Shown here: piece after piece, positions 1 through 16,629 of the stretch
How positions within the stretch are numbered: the stretch's first letter is position 1
Layout of the letters: each line of letters opens with the position of its first letter
From: a virus
Lineage: Duplodnaviria; Heunggongvirae; Uroviricota; Caudoviricetes
Strand: one strand, 5' to 3'
Length of the DNA: 31,226 nucleotides
IMG/VR virus record: IMGVR_UViG_2541047916_000004
Program-made: the position numbers and the translations under genes
Notes under the pieces: generated by a model
Databases searched by the model: none
Seen by the model: the letters and a program-made list of their open reading frames with translations, nothing else
What the model was told of the DNA's origin: nothing

Positions 1-1131
1 TCAAATGACCAGTTTTTTCCATTCCTTACCGCGTGCGTCGTTGTAAATATCGGTCATTTTTTGATTCGAATGGCCTAGCAAAATTTTGGTATCAACCCCC
101 TGCTCTCTGAACAATCGCTCTGATAAAGATCTCTGCTCATGGAAAGAGGGAGGGGTGCCATTAGCACGCCAGTTGTAATCCACAGAATCCCGGGCTTTTT
201 TAAATGCAACGGTTAATGTTGCTGGCTTAACCATCCCGCCGCGCTTAGCTGTCCCTTTCGCGTGATGGTGGTGCAATAGCCACGGACTAAGAATGCAATC
301 GCGGCAGGATGACACCACATCATCCAGGGTGAGATTTAATTTATCGCAACGCAGAGCCAGAGGGATGGCAATCCGGGTTCCTGTTTTTTGCTGTTCGACA
401 TGAAGATAACCATCCCGGATATCCGAAAATTGCATTTTGCAAATATCTGAAAGGCGCTGGCCTGTCATCAGTGCCAGCAGCATACCGCGCTGTAAAAAGT
501 AACCATCCTTTTCCGCTGCGTTATAAATCATCATCCACTCATCAAAAGTCAGTCGCTGTCTTGATATCCGCACCTGCGGTTTTTTTGCCGATTCTGCAGG
601 GTTAAAGCCTGGCGGGACATCGCCCGTTTGCTGAGCTTCCCGGAAAACATCGATCAGTACTTTCCTGAAAATTTGTCCCATTCTGTTATGTCCTCTGGCC
701 TTGTACTCTTCCAGTACTGATACCACATCTTTTACGGTTATGGCATCTAACGGTCTGGTGCCAAAACGTTCATCAAATACCCTGAGAGGAGCTGCTTTCT
801 GTTTCAGCGTGTTGAGTTTGATCTCGCCGTTTTCATATCTTTCCTGTTGAATTTTTCTGTAATTATTCAGAAAAATGGTAACGGTTGATGAACCGCCGGT
901 ATCACTAATAATTTTCTCCTGCAGACTGAGCATTTGTTCCATTTGCTGCCGGGCAAGACGGCTGTTCGCTTCTGCTGCAATAGTTTCTGCCAGTTTCTGG
1001 TCAATACTGCCGAGACCGTGATTTTTGCCTGTTATGGGATGCCTGTAACGCCAGTAAACTTTGTTATTTCTTTTGTCAAAATACGGAGATAATCCCGGAA
1101 CATCGGTTTTATATTTTCGCGGGCGCGCCAT
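1..1131 (-). CDS. int: Phage integrase, tyrosine recombinase family
   Basis: 376-aa ORF ending ...LLGHSNQKMTDIYNDARGKEW, typical of the C-terminal catalytic region of lambdoid integrases; start overlaps the upstream small xis-like ORF; stop codon sits at the window edge. Confidence 0.9.
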   Translation of the reverse strand: MARPRKYKTDVPGLSPYFDKRNNKVYWRYRHPITGKNHGLGSIDQKLAETIAAEANSRLARQQMEQMLSLQEKIISDTGGSSTVTIFLNNYRKIQQERYENGEIKLNTLKQKAAPLRVFDERFGTRPLDAITVKDVVSVLEEYKARGHNRMGQIFRKVLIDVFREAQQTGDVPPGFNPAESAKKPQVRISRQRLTFDEWMMIYNAAEKDGYFLQRGMLLALMTGQRLSDICKMQFSDIRDGYLHVEQQKTGTRIAIPLALRCDKLNLTLDDVVSSCRDCILSPWLLHHHHAKGTAKRGGMVKPATLTVAFKKARDSVDYNWRANGTPPSFHEQRSLSERLFREQGVDTKILLGHSNQKMTDIYNDARGKEWKKLVI

Positions 1132-1421: not shown

Positions 1422-3893
1422 TTAAAAATCAGCCTGACTCGGGATCAGTTTTTGCCAGATAACTGAAACGTATTTTGCCTGGTAACGGGCGTCATCAAGT
1501 GCATTATGGCGCTCACCTTCGAATGGAATAGCCGTTCTGGCATCGAAGTCTATGGCTTTCCCCAGCTCAACGATTGTGCGTACATCGCGATCGTTGTAGT
1601 AACGCCACGGGCAGGGGATCCCCTGCCGTTCGTATGAACGGCGCAAAATCGTGTTGTCGAAGTTGGCTCCATTTCCCCAAACCTGAACAAAAAATTCACC
1701 GGAGTTTTCGTCGATAAATTCCCGCAATTGTAACAGTGCATCATCTAACGGGATTTCATCGGTCATAATGGCAGATTGCGCTTCGCGTGATTGCTTAAGC
1801 CACCATTTAATGGTGTCCCGATCAATGACTCCGCCAGCAGTTTCCAGATCGATAGTCTTACTAAATTCCGGTCCCATATCTCCGGTTTGCGGATCGAAAA
1901 ATATTGCACCTATTGAGATGATCGGGGCATCAGGATTTTTTCCCATGGTTTCAAGGTCGATCATTAGATGGTCACACGTCCTGCTGGTGGATGTGATTTC
2001 GTGATGACCGTTCACCTTAATTGAGCGATCTGCCGTCTCGCCAGTTTCATTATCGCTATCGTGATGCTGATTGCCGCCAGTGTTCTCCTTGTGTGGATGT
2101 TCAGCGCCTTCCATTTCCTCCGGATCATCTTCCTGAACTTCAACCTGATACTCTTCATCGAATGTTTCCTGGTATGTTGCGTCGCCCATCACCGCGCCAC
2201 AATCAGGGCAGTTGCCGCCGCCGGTCTGACCGCAGGCGGTGCAGACTTTTTCCACTTCCTGTTGCGCCACTGGTTCAGGCTGTTTCGTTTCTGGCTCGTT
2301 TTGTAACGCATTTGGGCTGTTTTGTTCCGCTTTTTGGTAGTTCCGTTCCGATTCATGCTGGTTCTGGTTCACAGAATCGCGGGTCTGGATCCCCTTAACC
2401 CATTTCGGATCATTCGGGTCACTAATCCCTTCAACAAATTCACCACGTGATGCAGCAAGCAACTTATCGGCGTCAGGCTGGCTGATATTGGCTGCCTGCA
2501 TAATTTTGTTTACTTCGTCAGCGGTAACTTTTATCGGCTCTGGTTGTTCTGAATCTTCAGCGGTATCTACATTTTGCGGTAAGCCCGTGTATGTGCCATT
2601 TTTTCGGGCAAAATATTCTTCTTTTGTGATTTCAGTGGCGCCAGCAGCCAGTGCCTTATCCAGACCAGAAAGTTTGTTTGCGCGACCGCATTTTTCTCCG
2701 TCCTTATCTGCGAAGAGGAAATAGAACGGCCCCTCACGCTCTACAGATGGTTCAGCTTCCGGCGCGGTTTCATTTTTTGGGATATCAGATACCTCAGTTT
2801 CCACTGCATCAGTTTGTGTTTCTGATGACTGGAGAACATCAACAGTGCCCAGGTCTGTTTCTTCATTCTCAAACACGCCCTTTGTCGTCAGGTATTCGCA
2901 GATATATTTGTTCAGTGCTATGGGATCTTTGTGAATGTCGATCGGACGCTCACGGACAAGGCCAAAAATAGTTTGGCGGTCGTAGCGAAGGGCATCAGGC
3001 TGTTTGCGCATTGATGCCGAGATACGCTTCCAGTCTTCGCGGTCGTTGTCGATAACTTCATTTTTTGCCCAGCGATGGATGCTGCCGTCAATGTTTCCGG
3101 CATCCACATCACCAGGCCAGAGAGCGTAGGCCAGTTCGTCATCCAGTGTTTTCCATGTCTGCTTGTATTCGCGATGAATGGCAGCAATGACCGGGCTGAT
3201 TTTTCCTGTTGAATTTTCACTGTGCTGTTGATTGGTTCTGGCGCGGGCGAGATCAATAACAGACGTGTATTTTCCGGTTTCCTTACGTTCACCTTCGCGA
3301 CGTTTTTTCCAGATGCGCATCTCTGCCTGAATTTCGGGCCATTTGGCACCAGGCTTACATTTATGCTTAACCCACCCGATGGCATGCAGCTTAAGCTCCG
3401 GATACATGGCGTTAACTTCTGGCATTTTCATCAACGCTTCAACGATATGTCCGTCGAATGTTGCCATGTCTTCCTGCAACAATTCCTGTGCGCTAATAAC
3501 CATATCAACGGTGATGTTTTCACATGTGTCGAACTTAACCATGACAGCGTTCTGTACTTCAGGGGCCAGCTTGTCAAAAGTGACGTTCATCGGATCGGAT
3601 TCAGTCTCAACCGGGACAAAGGAAGCAGACTCCTCATCCCAGCGGTTTTCCTGCATATATTCAGCATCCCAGGAATCGAGGGCAGGGCGGGGTATGCCGG
3701 GTTTATCCTCACAGACAATAAATTTATAAGCGCAGTCCTGAGCTGCAGGGAATTGCTCCAGAAATTGCCAATGAAATTTTGCGCGTGCGCGACGCTCATC
3801 ACCAGCTTCAATGGCAGTGGCCACCGCAACAGCGCTATCTTCTTTTATGGCCTGTTCATCAGGAATAGCAGCGCAAATAAAGACCTTACTCAT
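1422..3893 (-). CDS. Large phage exonuclease with C-terminal DnaQ-like DEDDh 3'-5' exonuclease domain
   Basis: 823-aa ORF; C-terminal 200 aa carry Exo I (MIDLETMG), Exo II (VWGNGANFDNT) and Exo III (HNALDDARYQ) motifs; acidic N-terminal region contains a CTACG...CPDCG zinc-ribbon-like motif. Confidence 0.75.
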   Translation of the reverse strand: MSKVFICAAIPDEQAIKEDSAVAVATAIEAGDERRARAKFHWQFLEQFPAAQDCAYKFIVCEDKPGIPRPALDSWDAEYMQENRWDEESASFVPVETESDPMNVTFDKLAPEVQNAVMVKFDTCENITVDMVISAQELLQEDMATFDGHIVEALMKMPEVNAMYPELKLHAIGWVKHKCKPGAKWPEIQAEMRIWKKRREGERKETGKYTSVIDLARARTNQQHSENSTGKISPVIAAIHREYKQTWKTLDDELAYALWPGDVDAGNIDGSIHRWAKNEVIDNDREDWKRISASMRKQPDALRYDRQTIFGLVRERPIDIHKDPIALNKYICEYLTTKGVFENEETDLGTVDVLQSSETQTDAVETEVSDIPKNETAPEAEPSVEREGPFYFLFADKDGEKCGRANKLSGLDKALAAGATEITKEEYFARKNGTYTGLPQNVDTAEDSEQPEPIKVTADEVNKIMQAANISQPDADKLLAASRGEFVEGISDPNDPKWVKGIQTRDSVNQNQHESERNYQKAEQNSPNALQNEPETKQPEPVAQQEVEKVCTACGQTGGGNCPDCGAVMGDATYQETFDEEYQVEVQEDDPEEMEGAEHPHKENTGGNQHHDSDNETGETADRSIKVNGHHEITSTSRTCDHLMIDLETMGKNPDAPIISIGAIFFDPQTGDMGPEFSKTIDLETAGGVIDRDTIKWWLKQSREAQSAIMTDEIPLDDALLQLREFIDENSGEFFVQVWGNGANFDNTILRRSYERQGIPCPWRYYNDRDVRTIVELGKAIDFDARTAIPFEGERHNALDDARYQAKYVSVIWQKLIPSQADF

Positions 3894-3988
3894 TTTGTTT
3901 TAACCTCATTACAGATTTCAGGGTGAACGAATCCCTGCCATTGCTGGCATTTTTAATCCGTTGGTATGGTGTTAATATGGCTGGAGGG

Positions 3989-4177
3989 TTATCCAGCCGG
4001 TGTTTCGTTATTCAGGTACAGCGATACTTTTTTTAGCGGGAGGCATTCACCAGAAATTTTTTGCTCGTCTCTTGCCTGGAGGCAGGATTCTTTACTTGCA
4101 TAAATTCCGGTAATCACATTCTGTGATTCACCCGTTATAAGAAAAACCGTCATCATCAGTGCAAATGCTGAAGTCAT
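3989..4177 (-). CDS. Hypothetical small protein with N-terminal hydrophobic signal/TM segment
   Basis: 62-aa ORF in an AT-rich stretch; start ATG overlaps stop of the upstream 62-aa ORF (ATGA), suggesting translational coupling; N-terminus MTSAFALMMTVFLITG is hydrophobic. Confidence 0.45.
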   Translation of the reverse strand: MTSAFALMMTVFLITGESQNVITGIYASKESCLQARDEQKISGECLPLKKVSLYLNNETPAG

Positions 4178-4362
4178 TGACGTTCTCCGAAAATACCAAG
4201 TTCAAGAAGAGCAATTCGGGAAAGTATGGAATTATCATTGAGCAGATAAGGCTCATATTTCCTCATATTAATGGCATCTTCAGTAAACTCCCGGTTACTG
4301 AGCAGAACACCAATATCAAAACAACCTTCAGACGTATTAACGTTTGGTAATAACGTTTCCAT
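4174..4362 (-). CDS. Hypothetical small protein
   Basis: 62-aa ORF, AT-rich, coupled by ATGA overlap to the downstream ORF; no recognisable motif. Confidence 0.45.
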   Translation of the reverse strand: METLLPNVNTSEGCFDIGVLLSNREFTEDAINMRKYEPYLLNDNSILSRIALLELGIFGERQ

Positions 4363-4933
4363 TATCGCGTCCTCAACAATGAATTTTGTGATGCAGTGCC
4401 TGGTGCCTCCAGGTGACGTTAACCAGTTAACAATTAACTCCGGGTTAGTTGATGCTCGTTACGCCCGTAAAATACCGCCTTACTGCTTTAACTGTTCCGC
4501 GTGCGCATAGCCGCATTCACCGCATCACAAAATTCACTTTAAAAAGGGCGGCAGAGCAGTCACGGAGTAAAACTGATACCGCCAAATGTCACCAGAAAAT
4601 TGATAACAGAGGGCGTTGTAGCGGGGTTGTCACTTAAGCGTATGGTCAACCTGACAACCCGGTGCATTTTCTGGAGCAATGGAGGAAACCCCAGCCATAC
4701 TTACCGCCGCGCCATTTCGCGGAGTGCCACAACCGGAAGCGCACGGTCGAACTAAATTTAACGACACCGTACAGAGAGACCAATTTCGCCGTGCGCTTTC
4801 GCGTTATGCCCTGACTTTTCAGGGACATATCCTTTCAGTAAGCTGTCAGTGCCGGATGCTCACCCGTGTCCGGCGCACGCACTCCACCTGACCCGTGGAG
4901 AACTCCTTAATTACCAACCCTCAGGAGGGTGAA

Positions 4934-5212
4934 ATGGATAAAAAGCAAATTGAGGCCCTGCAATCTATTATTGAAGAACAAGATGAAGCTATCAGGATTC
5001 TTTCATATCGCACTGATATGATACTAAATATGCTTTCTGCATTAACGGCTGCGCTTGGTGGTACAAAAACAAACGTATACCGCGAAGTTGTTATTCAACA
5101 GATAGATAAATTTGAAAAAACCATACCAGGTATTAATGCTCATCTTGCAGAACAAGAGAAAGACCATGCTCTTATGGCAATTTCTTCAGTAGCTCTCCCG
5201 AAAGTTGAGTAG
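4934..5212 (+). CDS. Hypothetical protein, predicted coiled coil
   Basis: ATG preceded by GGAGGG Shine-Dalgarno 6 nt upstream; 92 aa (MDKKQIEALQSIIEEQDEAIRIL...); AT-rich codon usage distinct from neighbours; opposite orientation to the surrounding leftward operon. Confidence 0.5.
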   Translation: MDKKQIEALQSIIEEQDEAIRILSYRTDMILNMLSALTAALGGTKTNVYREVVIQQIDKFEKTIPGINAHLAEQEKDHALMAISSVALPKVE

Positions 5213-5585
5213 TTTTAATTGTTGTTTTGAAATAATCACTGCTTTCACATTTGAGTGATTTCATGGCAATCCAAATGCGGGCCTCTGTGCCTGCATTTGG
5301 TTCCAGTTGCTGTAGACGTTTTGCGTCTTCCAAAAGTAAGGCGATAATGTGTTTCAGCTTCTCATCATTTGCTTGATTCTTGTTTTCAGGCGAATTCTGT
5401 CCGCCGAATAGGCGCTTCTCTTCATACAGACCTATAAAGGCACGACGCACGTTACCGGATATAGTATCGATGGTTTCCTTTTCTACGGTACTCAGGTCAA
5501 GAGTCGCCAGTTGAGAGCGAACCACATTCGATGCCATTTCCTGGAATGGTACTGGTAAATCTTTAAATTCCATCGTCAACCTCAT
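5172..5585 (-). CDS. Hypothetical protein
   Basis: 137-aa ORF; start overlaps stop of upstream 77-aa ORF by 1 nt (TGATG); 3' end overlaps the convergent + strand ORF by 41 bp. Confidence 0.5.
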   Translation of the reverse strand: MRLTMEFKDLPVPFQEMASNVVRSQLATLDLSTVEKETIDTISGNVRRAFIGLYEEKRLFGGQNSPENKNQANDEKLKHIIALLLEDAKRLQQLEPNAGTEARIWIAMKSLKCESSDYFKTTIKTTQLSGELLKKLP

Positions 5586-5818: not shown

Positions 5819-5923
5819 GTTCTTACGCCTCGGGCTGGCTACTTAACCCCTGACCACTGCCTGGTAACTCGAAGTATTGCCCTGCATTCTGTGGGGCGGG
5901 GTGGGTTGGTATGAAAAGAAGGA

Positions 5924-5960
5924 TACCCATAGGTATTTAAAAAGTAAATACCCATGGGTA
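5924..5960. promoter_or_regulatory. OL-like operator cluster: two TACC-N4-GGTA palindromes
   Basis: TACCCATAGGTA (5924-5935) and TACCCATGGGTA (5949-5960) downstream of the repressor gene and upstream of the leftward genes; same consensus as the sites in the divergent region at 6443-6493. Confidence 0.45.
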
Positions 5961-6002
5961 AATTTTTGCGGTGTCTTAACTGGTGACTAGTTGTTTGGTG
6001 AG

Positions 6003-6422
6003 CTATGATGCGTTTTGTGCTTTCTTTTTACGGATTTCTTCGTAGATCATATTGTAATACTGTTTTTTCTCTTCAAGAGTTTTTAATAATTTATCCGCTT
6101 CACTTTCTGGCAGTTCGTCTAAGAGATCTAAAAAAATACGTTGTCGTGGCGTTAGAACCCTTGTTTCATAACTGGAGGCTGTGTTCGTTGATGATGAAAC
6201 GATACCATCCATCCATCCCCGGGGTAACCCAAAGGACTCTTCGATAATCTCCACCATATCATCAGCGATCCGTTTTTTTCCCTTTTTCCCCTCTGGGTAC
6301 AACATTCTTGATACATAAGAAGGCTCGCGCCCGATCTTTCTGGCCACGTTAACCGCTTTACCATCGCATTTCTCATCACGAATTTTGATGAGTTGCTGTC
6401 GTCTAAATTCATATTTGTCCAT
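6003..6422 (-). CDS. Putative CI-like prophage repressor (HTH)
   Basis: 139-aa ORF divergent from a Cro-like gene; segment AVNVARKIGREPSYVSRML resembles an HTH; flanked on both sides by palindromic operator-like sites. Confidence 0.6.
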   Translation of the reverse strand: MDKYEFRRQQLIKIRDEKCDGKAVNVARKIGREPSYVSRMLYPEGKKGKKRIADDMVEIIEESFGLPRGWMDGIVSSSTNTASSYETRVLTPRQRIFLDLLDELPESEADKLLKTLEEKKQYYNMIYEEIRKKKAQNAS

Positions 6423-6442
6423 AGGTAAATAATAGATGCGAT

Positions 6443-6497
6443 TACCGCAAGGTAAACAACCTGTGGGTATTGACTTTTGTTTACCTGTGGGTATTCT
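6443..6497. promoter_or_regulatory. OR-like operator/promoter region
   Basis: TACCGCAAGGTA (6443-6454), partial AACCTGTGGGTA (6459-6470) and TACCTGTGGGTA (6482-6493); candidate rightward promoter TTGACT (6470-6475), 16-nt spacer, TATTCT (6492-6497), ahead of the Cro-like gene at 6523. Confidence 0.5.
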
Positions 6498-6522
6498 TTG
6501 CTGTGTTTACTAAGGAGTAGCT

Positions 6523-6804
6523 ATGGAAGAATTAAGAATATTTCTCAATTCTCTTTCGTCAGATGAACAGCGTATGTTTGCATGCGAGTGTGGTACCAGC
6601 ATCGGTTATCTAAGAAAGGCATTGAGTAAAGGTCAAGTGTTAGGGGCATCGTTATGTGTCCTTATTGAGCGAGCCAGTAATGGTGAAGTTACACGTCAGC
6701 AACTAAGGCCTTTTGATTGGATGAATATTTGGCCCGAGCTGGAAGATACCAAAACGTTAACACAACCACTTTCTAGGAGCTTGATTCATGAAAATCAAGC
6801 ATGA
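6523..6804 (+). CDS. Cro-like HTH regulator (YdaS-like)
   Basis: 93-aa ORF divergent from the repressor; MFACECGTSIGYLRKALSKGQ is HTH-like; first gene of the rightward operon; resembles the Rac-type ydaS architecture. Confidence 0.65.
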   Translation: MEELRIFLNSLSSDEQRMFACECGTSIGYLRKALSKGQVLGASLCVLIERASNGEVTRQQLRPFDWMNIWPELEDTKTLTQPLSRSLIHENQA

Positions 6805-7213
6805 ACACATCCGCATGGCGATGAATGCCTGGGCGCGTCCTGATGGCGAAAAAGTTCCAGCAGCTGGAATAACCCAGGCTTATTTTGAGTTGGGTATGAC
6901 GTTCCCGGAACTGTATGACGACAGCCATCCGGAAGCCCTGGCTCGCAATACCCAGAAAATTTTCCGCTGGGTAGAGAAAGACACCCCTGATGCTGTTGAA
7001 AAAATGCAGGCTCTGTTACCGGCGATCGAAAAGGCGATGCCGCCTTTGCTGGTGGCCCGTATGCGCAGCCACAGTTCTGAATATTACCGTGAGATCGTCG
7101 AACGGAGGGATCGGCTGGTGAAGGATGTCGATGATTTTGTTGCGTCAGCGGTTGTTTTGTATGACCAGATGAATCGCGGCGGCCCGGCAGGGAATGCTGT
7201 GGTGATGCACTAA
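6788..7213 (+). CDS. YdaT-like (CII-like) regulator
   Basis: 141-aa ORF overlapping the Cro-like gene by 17 nt; position and size match the ydaS-ydaT pair of Rac-type prophages. Confidence 0.6.
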   Translation: MKIKHEHIRMAMNAWARPDGEKVPAAGITQAYFELGMTFPELYDDSHPEALARNTQKIFRWVEKDTPDAVEKMQALLPAIEKAMPPLLVARMRSHSSEYYREIVERRDRLVKDVDDFVASAVVLYDQMNRGGPAGNAVVMH

Positions 7214-10337: not shown

Positions 10338-11024
10338 ATGACCCCAATAAAAATATTTATGACTATTGCTGATTTCAAACGGCCTAAATTGGAGCTCCCA
10401 AACGGGGCAAACAAACTACTACTGCACTCTTGCTGTGCTCCATGTTCCGGTGAAGTGATGGAGGCGCTTCAGGCCTCGGGAATCGACTACACCATCTTTT
10501 TCTACAACCCGAACATTCATCCTCAGAAAGAGTATTTAATTCGTAAGGATGAAAATATTCGCTTTGCTGAACAACACGGCGTGCCGTTTATCGATGCTGA
10601 TTACGACACCGACAACTGGTTTGAACGTGCCAAAGGAATGGAATGGGAGCCTGAGAGGGGGATCCGTTGTACCATGTGTTTTGACATGCGTTTTGAGCGG
10701 ACAGCGTTGTACGCTGCTGAAAATGGTTTCAGTGTGATCAGCAGTTCACTGGGCATTTCACGCTGGAAAAATATGCAGCAGGTTAACGAGTGTGGGCGGC
10801 GAGCTGTTGCGCATTATCCGGGTATGGTGTACTGGGATTATAACTGGCGCAAGCAGGGCGGCTCGTCCCGTATGATTGAAATCAGCAAGCGCGAAAAATT
10901 CTATCAGCAGGAATATTGTGGCTGTGTGTATTCTCTGCGCGATACCAATCTACACCGCAAATCTCAGGGACGCCCTCTTATCAAAATTGGCCAACTCCAC
11001 TACGGAAAAGAAGAGAAGGAGTGA
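10338..11024 (+). CDS. queH: QueH-like (DUF208) putative epoxyqueuosine reductase
   Basis: 228-aa ORF with N-terminal [11 protein letters not shown] and C-terminal YCGCVYS cysteine motifs characteristic of QueH/DUF208 Fe-S proteins; assigned from motif recollection, not a search. Confidence 0.7.
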
Positions 11025-11261
11025 TTTTATGGATCACCTTTCTGATTGATTTCATATTGGCGAGGTGACGTGAGTTAAGTAGAATGGCTGCGGGTGCTTG
11101 AGGCTATCTGTCTCAGGCATGAACACTGAAAGGCAGATAGAGAAAAGCCCCAGTTAACATTTCGCGTCCTGCAAGACGCTTAACATTAATCTGAGGCCCA
11201 ATCTATGTCTCACAAATGTAGGTTAGCCTCTTACGTGCCGAAAGGCAAGGGGAAGCAGGCT

Positions 11262-11417
11262 ATGAAGCAGCAAAAGGCGATGTTAATCGCCCTGATCGTC
11301 ATCTGTTTAACCGTCATAGTGACGGCACTGGTAACGAGGAAAGACCTCTGCGAGGTACGACTCCGAACCGGCCAGACGGAGGTCGCTGTCTTCACAGCTT
11401 ACGAACCTGAGGAGTAA
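11262..11417 (+). CDS. hok: Hok/Gef family type I toxin
   Basis: 51-aa peptide MKQQKAMLIALIVICLTVIVTALVTRKDLCEVRLRTGQTEVAVFTAYEPEE, near-identical to Hok/RelF-family toxins; the longer in-frame ORF from 11205 is probably an artefactual extension. Confidence 0.85.
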   Translation: MKQQKAMLIALIVICLTVIVTALVTRKDLCEVRLRTGQTEVAVFTAYEPEE

Positions 11418-15627: not shown

Positions 15628-15703
15628 GGCCCTTTAGCTCAGTGGTGAGAGCGAGCGACTCATAATCGCCAGGTCGCTGGTTCAAATCCAGCAAGGGCCA
15701 CCA
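15628..15703 (+). tRNA. tRNA-Ile2-like (anticodon CAU; ileX/ileZ-type)
   Basis: 76 nt cloverleaf: acceptor GGCCCTT/AAGGGCC, D-arm AGCTCAGTGGTGAGAGC, anticodon loop CTCATAA, T-loop TTCAAAT, ACCA tail; closely resembles E. coli ileX. Confidence 0.85.
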
Positions 15704-15710
15704 TCACATA

Positions 15711-15787
15711 CCGCCATTAGCTCATCAGGAAAGAGCGCCAGCTTTCGAAGCTGGTTGCGCGGAGTTCGGGTCCCCGAAGGCGGTCCA
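15711..15787 (+). tRNA. tRNA-Arg(UCG)-like, possibly degenerate
   Basis: D-arm GCTC...GAGC and anticodon stem-loop CCAGC-TTTCGAA-GCTGG are clean; acceptor stem has one mismatch and the T-arm is non-canonical (loop TTCGGGT, mismatched stem). Confidence 0.45.
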
Positions 15788-15800
15788 TTATCTGTATCCT

Positions 15801-15877
15801 GCGTTGTTAGCTCAGCCGGACAGAGCAATTGCCTTCTAAGCAATCGGTCACTGGTTCGAATCCAGTACAACGCGCCA
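15801..15877 (+). tRNA. tRNA-Arg (anticodon UCU)
   Basis: 77 nt: acceptor GCGTTGT/ACAACGC, D-arm GCTC...GAGC, anticodon stem-loop ATTGC-CTTCTAA-GCAAT, T-arm ACTGG-TTCGAAT-CCAGT, GCCA tail. Confidence 0.85.
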
Positions 15878-15920: not shown

Positions 15921-16142
15921 TCTCACAATTCAGGCGGTTGACTGTTGTCTGGTTTGCGGGGAGTTTGTTAAAAGAAACTGGCATGGTGAATCCCCCTGTG
16001 CGGAGGGGCAATCAGCGAGTAGGTATATGGGATAATCGCGGATTCAGGTGCTGGTACTGAATTCACCGGGAGGCACCCGGCACCATGCAATGGCACATAG
16101 CGCCACTCTCCAGCCCCTCTCCGGAGGGGCTTTTCTGTGCCG
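15921..16142 (+). repeat. Copy A of a tandem paralogous hairpin-rich element (candidate sRNA unit)
   Basis: Shares with copy B the blocks CTCACAATTCAG..GTTGAC, GCATGGTGAATCCCCCTG(T/A)GCGGAGGGGC, GGTATA..ATAATC, TGAA(T/C)TCACCGGGAGGCACCCGGCACCATG and AGCCCCTCTCCGGAGGGGCTTT (terminator-like hairpin plus T-run); sequence between blocks differs. Confidence 0.45.
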
Positions 16143-16324
16143 GATACATCACAGTTTCTGGAACCTTAGGTACTACAGTATCAGTCAGGGTGCTATATTT
16201 TCAGATGTGATGAAAGCCTGTCAGCAGGCAGGGCGTATCGGAAATGACCCAGTAGAGAAAACGTTGACTCAGATACCGGTGCTGAGTTACCGGGAAACCG
16301 GCATCACATGACCGCTATCCTTCC

Positions 16325-16352
16325 AGGCCCATCCGCTCCGGTGGGCCTTTTT
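16325..16352 (+). terminator. Rho-independent terminator-like hairpin between the two repeat copies
   Basis: AGGCCCA-TCCGCTCCGG-TGGGCCT followed by TTTTT. Confidence 0.45.
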
Positions 16353-16390
16353 ACTGCAGAAAACAGGTTCCCCGTTAAATGCTATGTTGC

Positions 16391-16625
16391 TCACAATTCA
16401 GTAAGTTGACAGTTGCCTGTCAGACTGGGCATTTGTTAAAAAAATTTCGCATGGTGAATCCCCCTGAGCGGAGGGGCGACTGGTGACGGTATAATCTCTG
16501 ATTATCAAAACGAGAATGACGCGGGTTTAGTGGCACCGGGTTGAACTCACCGGGAGGCACCCGGCACCATGTGCATGATGATACAGATACGCGGCTTTAG
16601 CCCCTCTCCGGAGGGGCTTTCTTAT
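16391..16625 (+). repeat. Copy B of the tandem paralogous element (candidate sRNA unit)
   Basis: Same conserved blocks as copy A in the same order, including a perfect TATAAT (GGTATAATC) and the terminal GCCCCTC-TCCG-GAGGGGC hairpin followed by TTTCTT. Confidence 0.45.
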
Positions 16626-16629
16626 GGAC

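Follow-up and report, generated by a model that had tools for sequence, protein, structure and literature searches.

The repressor gene of an E. coli lambdoid prophage is flanked by five copies of a short palindrome that most probably make up the left and right operators (OL and OR) of a bistable switch controlling immunity in the manner of lambda; we put the probability of this reading at about 0.85. Scanning the whole window (the 31,226-bp stretch of DNA analysed here) for TACCNNNNGGTA (TACC-N4-GGTA, a 12-bp palindrome) gave four exact matches, at 5924, 5949, 6443 and 6482, where the first-pass annotation of this DNA had placed four full sites. They cluster within 570 bp around a single gene, that of the 139-aa repressor; the mean in shuffled sequences was 0.14 exact matches, and none of 100 shuffles reached four. 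The partial fifth site claimed in that annotation does exist, with one mismatch, although it had been drawn one base off, at 6459-6470 instead of 6458-6469; on the repressor strand it reads TACCCACAGGTT. At the one-mismatch level there are 15 matches in the window where 6.3 are expected, five of which are the proposed operator sites at OL and OR; the other ten are scattered across the window. The repressor ORF, the divergent Cro-like ORF of 93 aa and the rightward promoter with its 16-nt spacer are likewise present as described. The three OR sites lie at -71, -47 and -32 relative to the repressor ATG, and the two OL sites are 25 bp apart, centre to centre (Table 1).

Table 1. Features of the immunity region, in window coordinates.
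Feature	Position	Strand	Evidence and context
Immunity cassette (OL, repressor gene, OR, cro-like gene)	5908-6782	.	mosaic breakpoints on both sides
Proposed PL -10 hexamer, TATCCT	5920-5925	-	read from sequence; 2-bp overlap with left OL site
OL site 1, TACCCATAGGTA	5924-5935	.	exact match; covers spacer and -10 of proposed PL
Proposed PL -35 hexamer, TTTACT	5943-5948	-	read from sequence; 17-nt spacer to -10
OL site 2, TACCCATGGGTA	5949-5960	.	exact match; adjoins proposed PL -35 on its upstream side
Repressor gene, 139 aa	6003-6422	-	ORF; phrog_5736, E 6e-70
PRM-like -10 hexamer, TATTAT	6429-6434	-	promoter scan; ends 6 nt before repressor ATG
OR proximal site (OR3-like), TACCGCAAGGTA	6443-6454	.	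exact match; overlaps PRM -35 and spacer
PRM-like -35 hexamer, TTTACC	6451-6456	-	promoter scan; holds TACC half-site of OR proximal site
OR middle site (OR2-like), AACCTGTGGGTA	6458-6469	.	one mismatch; adjoins PR -35
PR -35 hexamer, TTGACT	6470-6475	+	promoter scan
OR distal site (OR1-like), TACCTGTGGGTA	6482-6493	.	exact match; covers PR spacer, overlaps -10
PR -10 hexamer, TATTCT	6492-6497	+	promoter scan
Cro-like gene, 93 aa, YdaS-like helix-turn-helix	6523-6804	+	phrog_35
YdaT (CII-equivalent) operator, TTGATTCATGAAAATCAA	6781-6798	.	zero-mismatch match to TTGATT-N6-AATCAA
ydaT-like gene, CII functional equivalent	6788-7213	+	PF06254, 37.8 bits vs cutoff 21; phrog_163

Absence of the palindromes from prophages with the same repressor had been named as evidence against the proposal; we found the opposite, as the sites are kept where the N-terminal domain of the repressor is identical. 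In 80 IMG/VR prophage contigs encoding this identical domain, the three OR sites are kept in 80/80. The distal site is exact in 79 of the 80, the middle site carries one mismatch in every contig, and the proximal site has one mismatch in 31; the OL pair is exact in 78 of 79. Variable columns make up 3 of 24 in the half-sites, 8 of 12 in N4 and 9 of 44 elsewhere, and variants from E. coli show the same bias, with variation falling on N4 rather than on the half-sites.

The arrangement extends well beyond close relatives. The comparison covered 40 loci of other genera (Enterobacterales, Aeromonas, Neisseria, Burkholderiales and Xanthomonas); in about 35 of them, sites occur near -72, -47 and -32, counted from the ATG, together with a downstream pair, whose spacing is 25-26 bp in 31 related loci. 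Among these loci the central 4 bp vary freely while the half-sites are conserved. Each OR position has its own character: the distal site, at -71 to -73, is exact in 36/38 relatives and has N4 = YRYR in 32/38; the middle site shows exactly one mismatch in 27/34, which invariably falls within its final two bases, and has N4 = YRYR in 29/34; and the proximal site, at -32 or -33, is exact in 26/36, with N4 = YRYR in 6/36.

These data bear on the objection that the cluster arose by chance, or that the palindrome is a generic repeat with no regulatory role. Short palindromes are common, and the ten scattered one-mismatch matches might seem to fit such a view. Four exact matches against an expected 0.14, positions fixed relative to the repressor ATG in about 35 loci from other genera and in the 80 contigs, and the concentration of variation in N4 all speak against it; the comparative data refute this reading, to which we assign a negligible probability.

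The 139-aa repressor is predicted to have an XRE-like helix-turn-helix in residues ~1-74, then a disordered linker and, at the C-terminus, a helical hairpin resembling that of DicA. In the AlphaFold2 model (pLDDT 86), the N-terminal helices span residues 3-18, 23-30, 34-40 and 54-63, and residues 92-137 form two helices; the predicted recognition helix is PSYVSRM. Foldseek aligns the N-terminal domain with XRE-type domains such as C.Esp1396I (target TM-score 0.71, rmsd 2.7, 74 columns). Pfam assigned the protein to no family, with no HTH model reaching E 0.01, and a sequence search against solved structures returned nothing significant. We dismissed as noise the best structure matches, ADAR Z-alpha domains at E about 0.08. 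The top Foldseek match, the SPC32H Rep-Ant repressor (5d50, E 1.7e-3), superposes with an rmsd of 10-17 A, too loose for kinship, and is kept as a lead only. By BLASTP, a C-terminal stretch of 46 aa shares 33% identity with DicA, and the tail matches NF007257 at E 1.9e-5 (24.5 bits, against a cutoff of 101); the N-terminal domains of the two proteins do not align. There is no PF00717 match, and thus no recognised S24 peptidase domain, in the 139-aa protein, whereas relatives of 220-242 aa that share its N-terminal domain do carry PF00717.

The N-terminal 74 aa constitute a module, which we call 'MDKYE' after its motif, MDKYE..RR..L...GKA..AR.I.REPSYVSRMLYPEGKKGKKRIADDM..IE..F.LPRGWMDG, present here as judged by the phrog_5736 match and by alignments. 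It occurs in hundreds of prophage repressors, and its family comprises 620 clusters at 50% identity (E <= 1e-3). The module corresponds to phrog_5736 together with the N-termini of many prophage repressors of the LexA family. We found no paper with the TACC-N4-GGTA motif, in several notations, or with the six actual site sequences, and papers that mention mEp043, a phage with the same module, do not treat its operators; the module and its operator sequence seem to be previously undescribed, though widespread in proteobacterial prophages.

Comparison of relatives also provides the main support for the earlier proposal that the palindromes are operators of the repressor. The cI protein of mEp043 shares 65% identity with the window repressor in its first 86 aa, and the REPSYVSRMLY helix is the same in both; the phage has three OR sites with the same 15- and 25-bp spacings, and its OL sites are a pair separated by 25 bp. 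Canonical sites are missing from relatives in which the recognition helix is changed (L023, L038, L042). In phage Tritos the flanks and the C-terminal tail are those of the window, but the DNA-binding domain and cro are different, and its operators are GTAC-type repeats in the corresponding places. Judged from these sequence comparisons, the case that the sites are operators of the repressor's DNA-binding domain is strong.

Alternatively, the Cro-like (YdaS-like) protein might be the sole reader of the palindromes, with some other target for the 139-aa protein. The Cro family stands divergent beside the repressor in 31 of the 40 related loci. Its association with the sites is thus about as close as that of the repressor domain, and sequence comparison by itself does not completely distinguish binding by the repressor from binding by Cro; the Cro proteins of the window and mEp043 are, moreover, 73% identical. 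Four Klebsiella loci (L004, L007, L008 and L010), however, have the repressor domain and keep the sites at -73, at -33 and downstream, and we found neither a Cro homologue nor a divergent ORF in them. Loss of the sites also tracks changes in the recognition helix of the repressor. To our knowledge, the repressor and Cro use common operators in every lambdoid switch that has been studied, lambda among them. In CP-933P, too, the repressor and a Cro-type protein share operators (PMC8630535). Together these points make it very improbable that the Cro-like protein alone reads the sites; it probably shares the repressor's operators, and most likely acts through the same five sites.

In the switch that we propose, one repressor dimer would occupy each 12-bp palindrome, with the recognition helix PSYVSRM contacting the TACC and GGTA half-sites. 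The central 4 bp, which alternate pyrimidine and purine in the strong sites, would probably be read indirectly. Repressor on the distal site would mask the spacer and -10 of PR; the middle site, apparently imperfect by design, lies 24 bp from the distal one and adjoins the -35, so that the two would jointly silence the transcript of the cro-like, ydaT-like and replication genes. We infer an order of occupancy among the sites, and their geometry suggests cooperative binding.

A leftward PRM-like promoter also lies inside OR, and is absent from the first-pass annotation. The middle site is centred at -41.5 relative to the predicted PRM start, and from this position the repressor would be able to activate PRM. 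Lambda CI activates PRM from the same position, at OR2. Occupation of the proximal site, over the PRM -35, would then bring about negative autoregulation. The PRM -10 ends so close to the repressor ATG (6 nt) that the mRNA is probably leaderless. A -10-like hexamer 5-8 nt before the repressor ATG is found in 29/42 loci of the family, and a Shine-Dalgarno-like sequence ahead of the ATG in only 6/42. The promoter elements are conserved along with the sites: ATTTACC, the PRM -35 region, is conserved throughout the repressor family, TCAA (the complement of the PR -35) is near-invariant beside the middle site, at 28-33 of 34 relatives per position, and ATTT flanks the middle site as well.

At OL, the pair of sites would bracket the -35 and -10 of a promoter, PL, and in this way keep the ydfA-dicF-dicB-exonuclease operon off. 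PL is a tentative candidate, read from the sequence; the promoter scan did not call it because its combined match, 8/12, falls below the threshold. The relatives have TTGA immediately after their upstream OL site (T in 31/31, T in 26/31, G in 25/31 and A in 24/31 at positions +13 to +16) and a TAnnnT pattern after the downstream one, where position +16 is T in 31/31. With sites over divergent PR and PRM and a second cluster over the putative PL, the regulatory architecture appears to be of the lambda type.

The same pair could mainly or additionally serve as an intrinsic terminator of the repressor transcript. Its two near-identical palindromes, 25 bp apart, fold as a single 16-bp RNA hairpin (-22.2 kcal/mol, z-score -6.15) followed by a U-rich tail, UCCUUCUUUU, 42 nt after the repressor stop codon; a terminator scan reports a match at 5960-5924 on the minus strand, and the Klebsiella loci and a few others in which OL directly follows the gene have T-rich tails too. 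The hairpin is, however, a by-product of having two copies of an extended palindrome. In relatives its energy ranges from -6 to -18 kcal/mol and its tail from 1 to 8 T, and in many loci the pair lies 400-2100 bp past the repressor stop codon with other genes in between. What is conserved at OL is instead the promoter context, TTGA and TAnnnT, and a terminator role leaves the OR sites unexplained. We therefore consider the terminator reading of the pair doubtful, and take OL to be an operator for which termination is plausible as a secondary function in this phage.

The cassette lies between mosaic breakpoints. Similarity to phage Tritos (92%) ends at about 5907 and restarts at 6783, and in a near-identical DNA search the isolated phages in the collection matched the flanks only; none carries this cassette. 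The Cro-like protein, named 'transcriptional regulator' or 'YdaS family helix-turn-helix protein' in RefSeq, matches PF15943 at E 9e-6 (25.8 bits, below the gathering cutoff of 30), and its family shares the motif MxELRxYLNSLS...CGTSIGYLRKA. An exact YdaT operator lies where the cro-like gene meets the ydaT-like gene, a motif whose sequence and position were defined by footprinting for YdaT of CP-933P (PMC9986795).

Among known switches, we compared the computed geometry of the window first with the established features of lambda (see also PMC8630535). In both systems PR and PRM diverge, three operators separate the repressor gene from cro, the two PR-side sites are 24 bp apart, the site beside the PRM -35 has its centre near -42, PL lies under another operator cluster beyond the end of the repressor gene (in the window, a proposed PL), and the repressor mRNA from PRM is leaderless (in the window, probably so). 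They differ in that the window has 12-bp sites, lambda 17-bp sites; the spacing from the middle to the proximal site is merely 15 bp; OL has two sites in the window and three in lambda; the repressor has 139 aa and lacks the S24 self-cleavage domain of lambda CI; and the role of CII is held by a YdaT-type protein.

The window resembles CP-933P of E. coli O157:H7: there, too, a short repressor with no recognisable S24 peptidase occupies the cI position, its neighbours are a YdaS-like Cro and a CII of the YdaT type, and the TTGATT-N6-AATCAA operator is at the cro/ydaT junction. In the PaaR2/YdaS/YdaT switch of CP-933P, OR, OL, PRM, PR and PL have been tested experimentally, and the operators are 18-bp repeats with the half-site GTTTAGTAA (PMC8630535). 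Unlike PaaR2, the window repressor has a different DNA-binding domain, and its gene is not followed by the paaA2-parE2 toxin-antitoxin genes. The neighbourhood is also that of DicA/DicC in Qin, with the repressor between a ydfA-ydfB-ydfC-dicF-dicB side and a cro side, and two operator-like repeats flank a promoter between the repressor gene and ydfA in Qin as well. DicA and the Gifsy repressors GfoR and GtgR are likewise proteins of about 135-139 aa in the cI position with no S24 domain (PMC3121763). By its length, position and ydfA-dicB-type neighbours, the window repressor fits this class of short, non-cleavable prophage repressors (about 135-150 aa).

With mEp043 the window shares the DNA-binding module, the operator motif and the number and spacing of the sites at OR and OL. 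The mEp043 cI protein, however, has 228 aa and belongs to a family with a C-terminal S24 peptidase (PF00717), so it is presumably SOS-cleavable, whereas the window protein has the DicA-like tail. The operators resemble those of phage 434 in being short palindromes with conserved outer bases and four unconserved central bases of biased character. The 434 repressor contacts the outer operator bases and senses the central ones by indirect readout. The two repressors have no sequence relationship, and for the window's sites a role of the central bases is suggested by conservation.

Given that a DicA-like hairpin replaces the S24 peptidase domain, induction by RecA-stimulated self-cleavage is unlikely; if the prophage is induced at all, an antirepressor or another route would be needed. 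Gifsy-type repressors are inactivated by a LexA-controlled antirepressor encoded beside a dinI homologue (PMC3121763). No such dinI-antirepressor module was found in the window, which is part of the prophage: its scanned ORFs include no dinI-like or antirepressor family, there is no exact match to the LexA box CTGT-N8-ACAG, and one-mismatch matches are at chance level. Nor is an antirepressor annotated at the tail-side end of a same-module prophage in strain 203740. An antirepressor might also act in trans.

A more far-reaching reading, which we hold tentatively and at less than even odds, is that the module, its TACC-N4-GGTA operators and the partner Cro form an ancient portable immunity cassette of beta- and gamma-proteobacterial phages, repeatedly joined to interchangeable 'induction' domains, and that the non-cleavable form is homo-immune with cleavable phages. 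The tails in question are several types of S24 peptidase, DicA-like hairpins and others. Homo-immunity with SOS-cleavable phages such as mEp043 would follow from the identical recognition helix and half-sites of the two forms. If this is true, a resident 139-aa repressor would be a dominant, SOS-proof repressor that blocks superinfection by mEp043-type phages and also the induction of co-resident prophages of the cleavable type, and fine adjustment of immunity specificity would take place in the highly variable central 4 bp.

The system is ordinary in kind, a new and well-defined example of a lambdoid switch that is otherwise textbook, and the conceptual gain is therefore modest. What it provides is a promoter map and a definition of the operators, both concrete enough to test, for an immunity type whose repressor RefSeq annotates only as 'hypothetical protein', and an operator consensus that can now be assigned by homology to prophage repressors with the same module in many genera. 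One specificity module with either a cleavable or a non-cleavable C-terminus also bears on how induction is coordinated or blocked in polylysogens, and this control matters for the spread of phage-borne virulence genes. Among complete E. coli genomes, about 15% (~1 in 7) have this immunity type, including O157:H7, O145, O111 and CFT073.

The window contains four exact matches to the palindrome TACC-N4-GGTA, compared with a mean of 0.14 in 100 dinucleotide-preserving shuffles, none of which reached four. All four lie around the repressor gene where the first-pass annotation had placed them, so that sites are found on both sides of the 139-aa ORF: a pair downstream (OL) and three in the divergent intergenic region (OR), the latter at -71, -47 and -32 from the repressor ATG. 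The fifth, partial site claimed at 6459-6470 does exist, with one mismatch, but it lies one base further to the left. Matches with one mismatch number 15 in the window (6.3 expected); five of these are the sites under discussion and the remaining ten are dispersed. A consensus promoter scan recovered the same rightward promoter, PR, that had been proposed from the sequence, together with a leftward, PRM-like one that the first-pass annotation does not list.

Features of the window, with strand and basis or remark
Feature	Position	Strand	Remark
Integrase	1-1131	-	
Large exonuclease	left side of repressor region		
ydfD-like ORF	3989-4177	-	PL operon
dicB-like ORF	4174-4362	-	PL operon
DicF sRNA	4546-4597	-	PL operon
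ydfA-like gene	left of repressor		
OL site	5924-5935	palindrome	exact
OL site	5949-5960	palindrome	exact
Proposed PL	TTTACT 5948-5943, 17-nt spacer, TATCCT 5925-5920	-	window equivalents of family TTGA/TAnnnT
Repressor ORF	6003-6422	-	139 aa
PRM-like promoter	TTTACC 6456-6451, 16 nt, TATTAT 6434-6429	-	consensus promoter scan
OR proximal site	6443-6454	palindrome	exact
OR middle site	6458-6469		AACCTGTGGGTA, one mismatch
OR distal site	6482-6493	palindrome	exact
PR	TTGACT 6470-6475, 16 nt, TATTCT 6492-6497	+	consensus promoter scan
Cro-like ORF	starts 6523	+	93 aa, divergent
QueH-like epoxyqueuosine reductase	10338-11024	+	cargo/accessory
hok/sok locus	11092-11267	+	cargo/accessory
Three tRNAs (Met, Arg-TCG, Arg-TCT)	15628-15877	+	downstream of Q-like antiterminator and methyltransferase
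STnc100 sRNA, two copies	15952-16629	+	

We compared the 80 best IMG/VR matches, all of which encode a 139-aa protein whose N-terminal domain is identical. The OR layout is kept in all 80: 79 have an exact distal site, every contig has a single mismatch in the middle site, and the proximal site splits into 49 exact copies and 31 with one mismatch. Of 79 contigs, 78 have an exact OL pair, and its spacing is always 25 bp. Thus the palindromes are not missing from prophages with the same repressor, which the first-pass annotation had named as grounds for refutation, and the comparative evidence supports the earlier proposal that they are its OL-like and OR-like operators. Together with the shuffling statistics, this conservation rules out chance clustering of the sites.

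The mismatched proximal allele, a common one, has TACT on the plus strand and hence AGTA on the repressor strand. Those 31 viral contigs carry it, as does CFT073 (locus L002, 6564-6575), and it would weaken negative autoregulation of the leftward repressor promoter, PRM. We also measured polymorphism in the E. coli population over the 80 bp that precede the repressor ATG in the same contigs (L049-L128; window 6423-6502). Half-site columns are variable at 3/24 positions (mean heterozygosity 0.022), N4 columns at 8/12 (0.116) and other columns at 9/44 (0.012). The N4 is about ten times as polymorphic as the adjoining non-operator DNA, and mostly still alternates pyrimidine and purine; this variation may tune affinity or immunity. 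In aligned diverged E. coli copies, variation again falls in N4 and the half-sites are kept.

The same arrangement extends well beyond this repressor. In about 35 of 40 related loci, from Enterobacterales, Aeromonas, Neisseria, Burkholderiales, Xanthomonas and others, sites lie at -73, -48 and -33 relative to the repressor ATG, and a pair is present downstream; half-sites are almost invariant and N4 varies freely. The cI of phage mEp043 (65% identity over 86 aa) has an identical recognition helix, with three sites between cI and cro (spacings 15 and 25 bp) and two more downstream, 25 bp apart. Conversely, we found no canonical sites in three related loci where the recognition helix differs: L023 (SYVNRIFY), L038 (ASISHMLY) and L042 (ATISHLLL). 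Phage Tritos matches the window in the left flank up to ~5907, in the right flank from 6783 onward and in the repressor C-terminal tail, but has a different DNA-binding domain, and GTAC-type repeats replace TACC/GGTA at the corresponding places. The OL sites thus fall within the exchangeable immunity cassette, ~5908-6782. Overall, this is an unusually clean comparative footprint.

Because a Cro homologue is divergently encoded in 31 of the 40 loci, Cro probably shares the operator sites. That Cro alone binds them is unlikely: site loss follows changes in the repressor recognition helix, and four Klebsiella loci (L004, L007, L008, L010) carry the repressor module and sites without a Cro homologue, which ties the sites to the repressor module. 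In these Klebsiella loci (~2925-3000, 3900-3970) the relative is a 233-aa S24-fused protein with sites at -73, -33 and downstream, lacking the middle site and a divergent cro; it may act on its own as an SOS-cleavable autoregulator and not form a phage switch. L038 and L042, from Advenella, encode distant 119-aa relatives and have, in place of TACC-N4-GGTA, a longer inverted repeat ~60-40 bp before the ATG at 3001 (ATACCGC-N8-GCGGTAT in L038, the weaker ACCGT-N8-ACGGT in L042), alike in half-site and different in spacing.

A Pfam search assigned the 139-aa repressor to no family, and PHROGs places it in phrog_5736, 'transcriptional regulator'. The AlphaFold2 model (pLDDT 86) has three parts: an N-terminal domain of four helices (3-18, 23-30, 34-40, 54-63), a disordered linker (77-87) and a C-terminal helical hairpin (92-103, 106-137). 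In Foldseek the N-terminal domain resembles XRE-type HTH domains (controller proteins, HigA, phage repressors), and this alignment identifies the HTH as AVNVARKI / PSYVSRM. Between helices 3 and 4, residues 41-53 (window ~6264-6302, minus strand) form a strongly conserved basic loop, LYPEGKKGKKRIA; unusually long for an XRE-type fold, it might touch the operator centre or flanks. Database searches recover the first 74 residues as a widespread module that makes up 620 clusters at 50% identity. In most relatives it belongs to a LexA-family protein of 220-242 aa with an S24 peptidase domain; in others it is joined to short helical tails like the one here or to different extensions. Over its last 46 residues the repressor shares 33% identity with the tail of DicA, the repressor of the Qin prophage, and this part closely resembles the tail of the 139-aa Tritos 'CI'. 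The repressor is thus domain-shuffled: its recognition module is a common one, joined to a DicA-like tail that is not a peptidase. It resembles DicA only in that tail, and it falls outside the S24/LexA family because the defining S24 domain is absent. For the recognition module or its operator we found no publication among open-access papers and preprints, no Pfam model and no structure.

Geometry and conservation suggest how OR could work. Written for the repressor strand, the consensus of the family is TTACC-N4-GGTAA, ~9 nt, TCAA-TACC-N4-GGTT-ATT-TACC-N4-GGTAA, followed by ~10 nt, a -10-like hexamer, 6-7 nt and the ATG. The near-invariant TCAA would be the complement of the PR -35 and ATTTACC the PRM -35. 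The distal site would then span the spacer and -10 of PR, with the middle site adjoining the PR -35 directly upstream of the PRM -35 and the proximal site overlapping the PRM -35. If PRM transcription began 7 nt past the -10, on the A of the repressor ATG (6422), the centre of the middle site would fall at -41.5; lambda CI at OR2 activates PRM from this same position. In 33/34 loci the last two bases of the middle site deviate from the palindrome (exactly one mismatch in 27/34), suggesting cooperative filling from the distal site, 24 bp away. Alternating YRYR centres are frequent in the strong sites, distal (32/38) and middle (29/34), and seldom seen in the proximal one (6/36), which suggests that affinity is graded by indirect readout. 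The TATTAT hexamer ends 6 nt ahead of the repressor ATG (6422-6434, minus strand), a layout shared by 29/42 family loci; a Shine-Dalgarno-like sequence precedes the gene in just 6/42 and is absent upstream of the window ATG, so the repressor mRNA is probably leaderless, as are those of lambda cI and paaR2 (PMC8630535).

At OL, relatives have TTGA directly after the upstream site, and the downstream site overlaps TAnnnT. The corresponding promoter in the window, PL, would be weak and face the ydfA-dicF-dicB-exonuclease operon. In this phage the OL pair may additionally terminate the PRM transcript: the two palindromes fold, with their A/T flanks, into a single 16-bp RNA hairpin (5924-5960, minus strand; -22.2 kcal/mol, z -6.15) with a U-rich tail, UCCUUCUUUU, to ~5914, 42 nt beyond the repressor stop codon. 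However, these terminator features are not kept in most relatives, whereas the promoter context is.

Overall, sequence comparison indicates a functionally lambda-type switch, an architecture that in itself will not surprise a specialist. Among characterised systems the closest analogue is the PaaR2/YdaS/YdaT switch of CP-933P, for which OR, OL, PRM, PR and PL have been demonstrated (PMC8630535). Its operators differ, being 18-bp repeats with half-site GTTTAGTAA rather than TACC-N4-GGTA, but the YdaT module is common to both. The exact TTGATT-N6-AATCAA, the experimentally defined YdaT operator of CP-933P (PMC9986795), occurs here as TTGATTCATGAAAATCAA at 6781-6798, at the cro-like/ydaT-like junction and in the same position as CP-933P OM, which implies a putative second input to the repressor gene, PRE-like and under YdaT control. 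Without an S24 domain, RecA-stimulated self-cleavage is not expected; short DicA/Gifsy-type repressors have a known alternative in a LexA-controlled antirepressor (PMC3121763), and within the window we found neither a LexA box nor a dinI-antirepressor module. The coupling of one recognition module to different induction domains raises the possibility of cross-immunity.

As a whole, the window corresponds to the early and middle regions of an E. coli lambdoid prophage. To the right of the repressor lie genes for a YdaS-like Cro, a YdaT-type CII equivalent, an O-like replication protein and a DnaC-like loader, and further right a Ren-like protein, RusA, a Q-like antiterminator and a methyltransferase. 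The gene neighbourhood, like the repressor tail, resembles that of DicA in Qin, where DicF, dicB-like and ydfD-like genes also lie in the PL operon; with these genes there, PL derepression would inhibit cell division. The dicB-like and ydfD-like assignments come from translations read by eye and comparison with annotated CFT073 and Tritos loci. All isolated phages in the phage collection lack the 651-bp immunity segment and match the window only in the flanks. Among 5,426 complete E. coli genomes, 822 contain at least 80% of the segment, mostly with an identity of 99% or higher; O157:H7, O145, O111 and CFT073 are among these, and the repressor is annotated there as 'hypothetical protein'. A 105-aa ORF on the plus strand (4895-5212; phrog_18692, unknown function) is oriented opposite to the early leftward operon and extends into the end of a 137-aa ORF on the minus strand (5172-5585).
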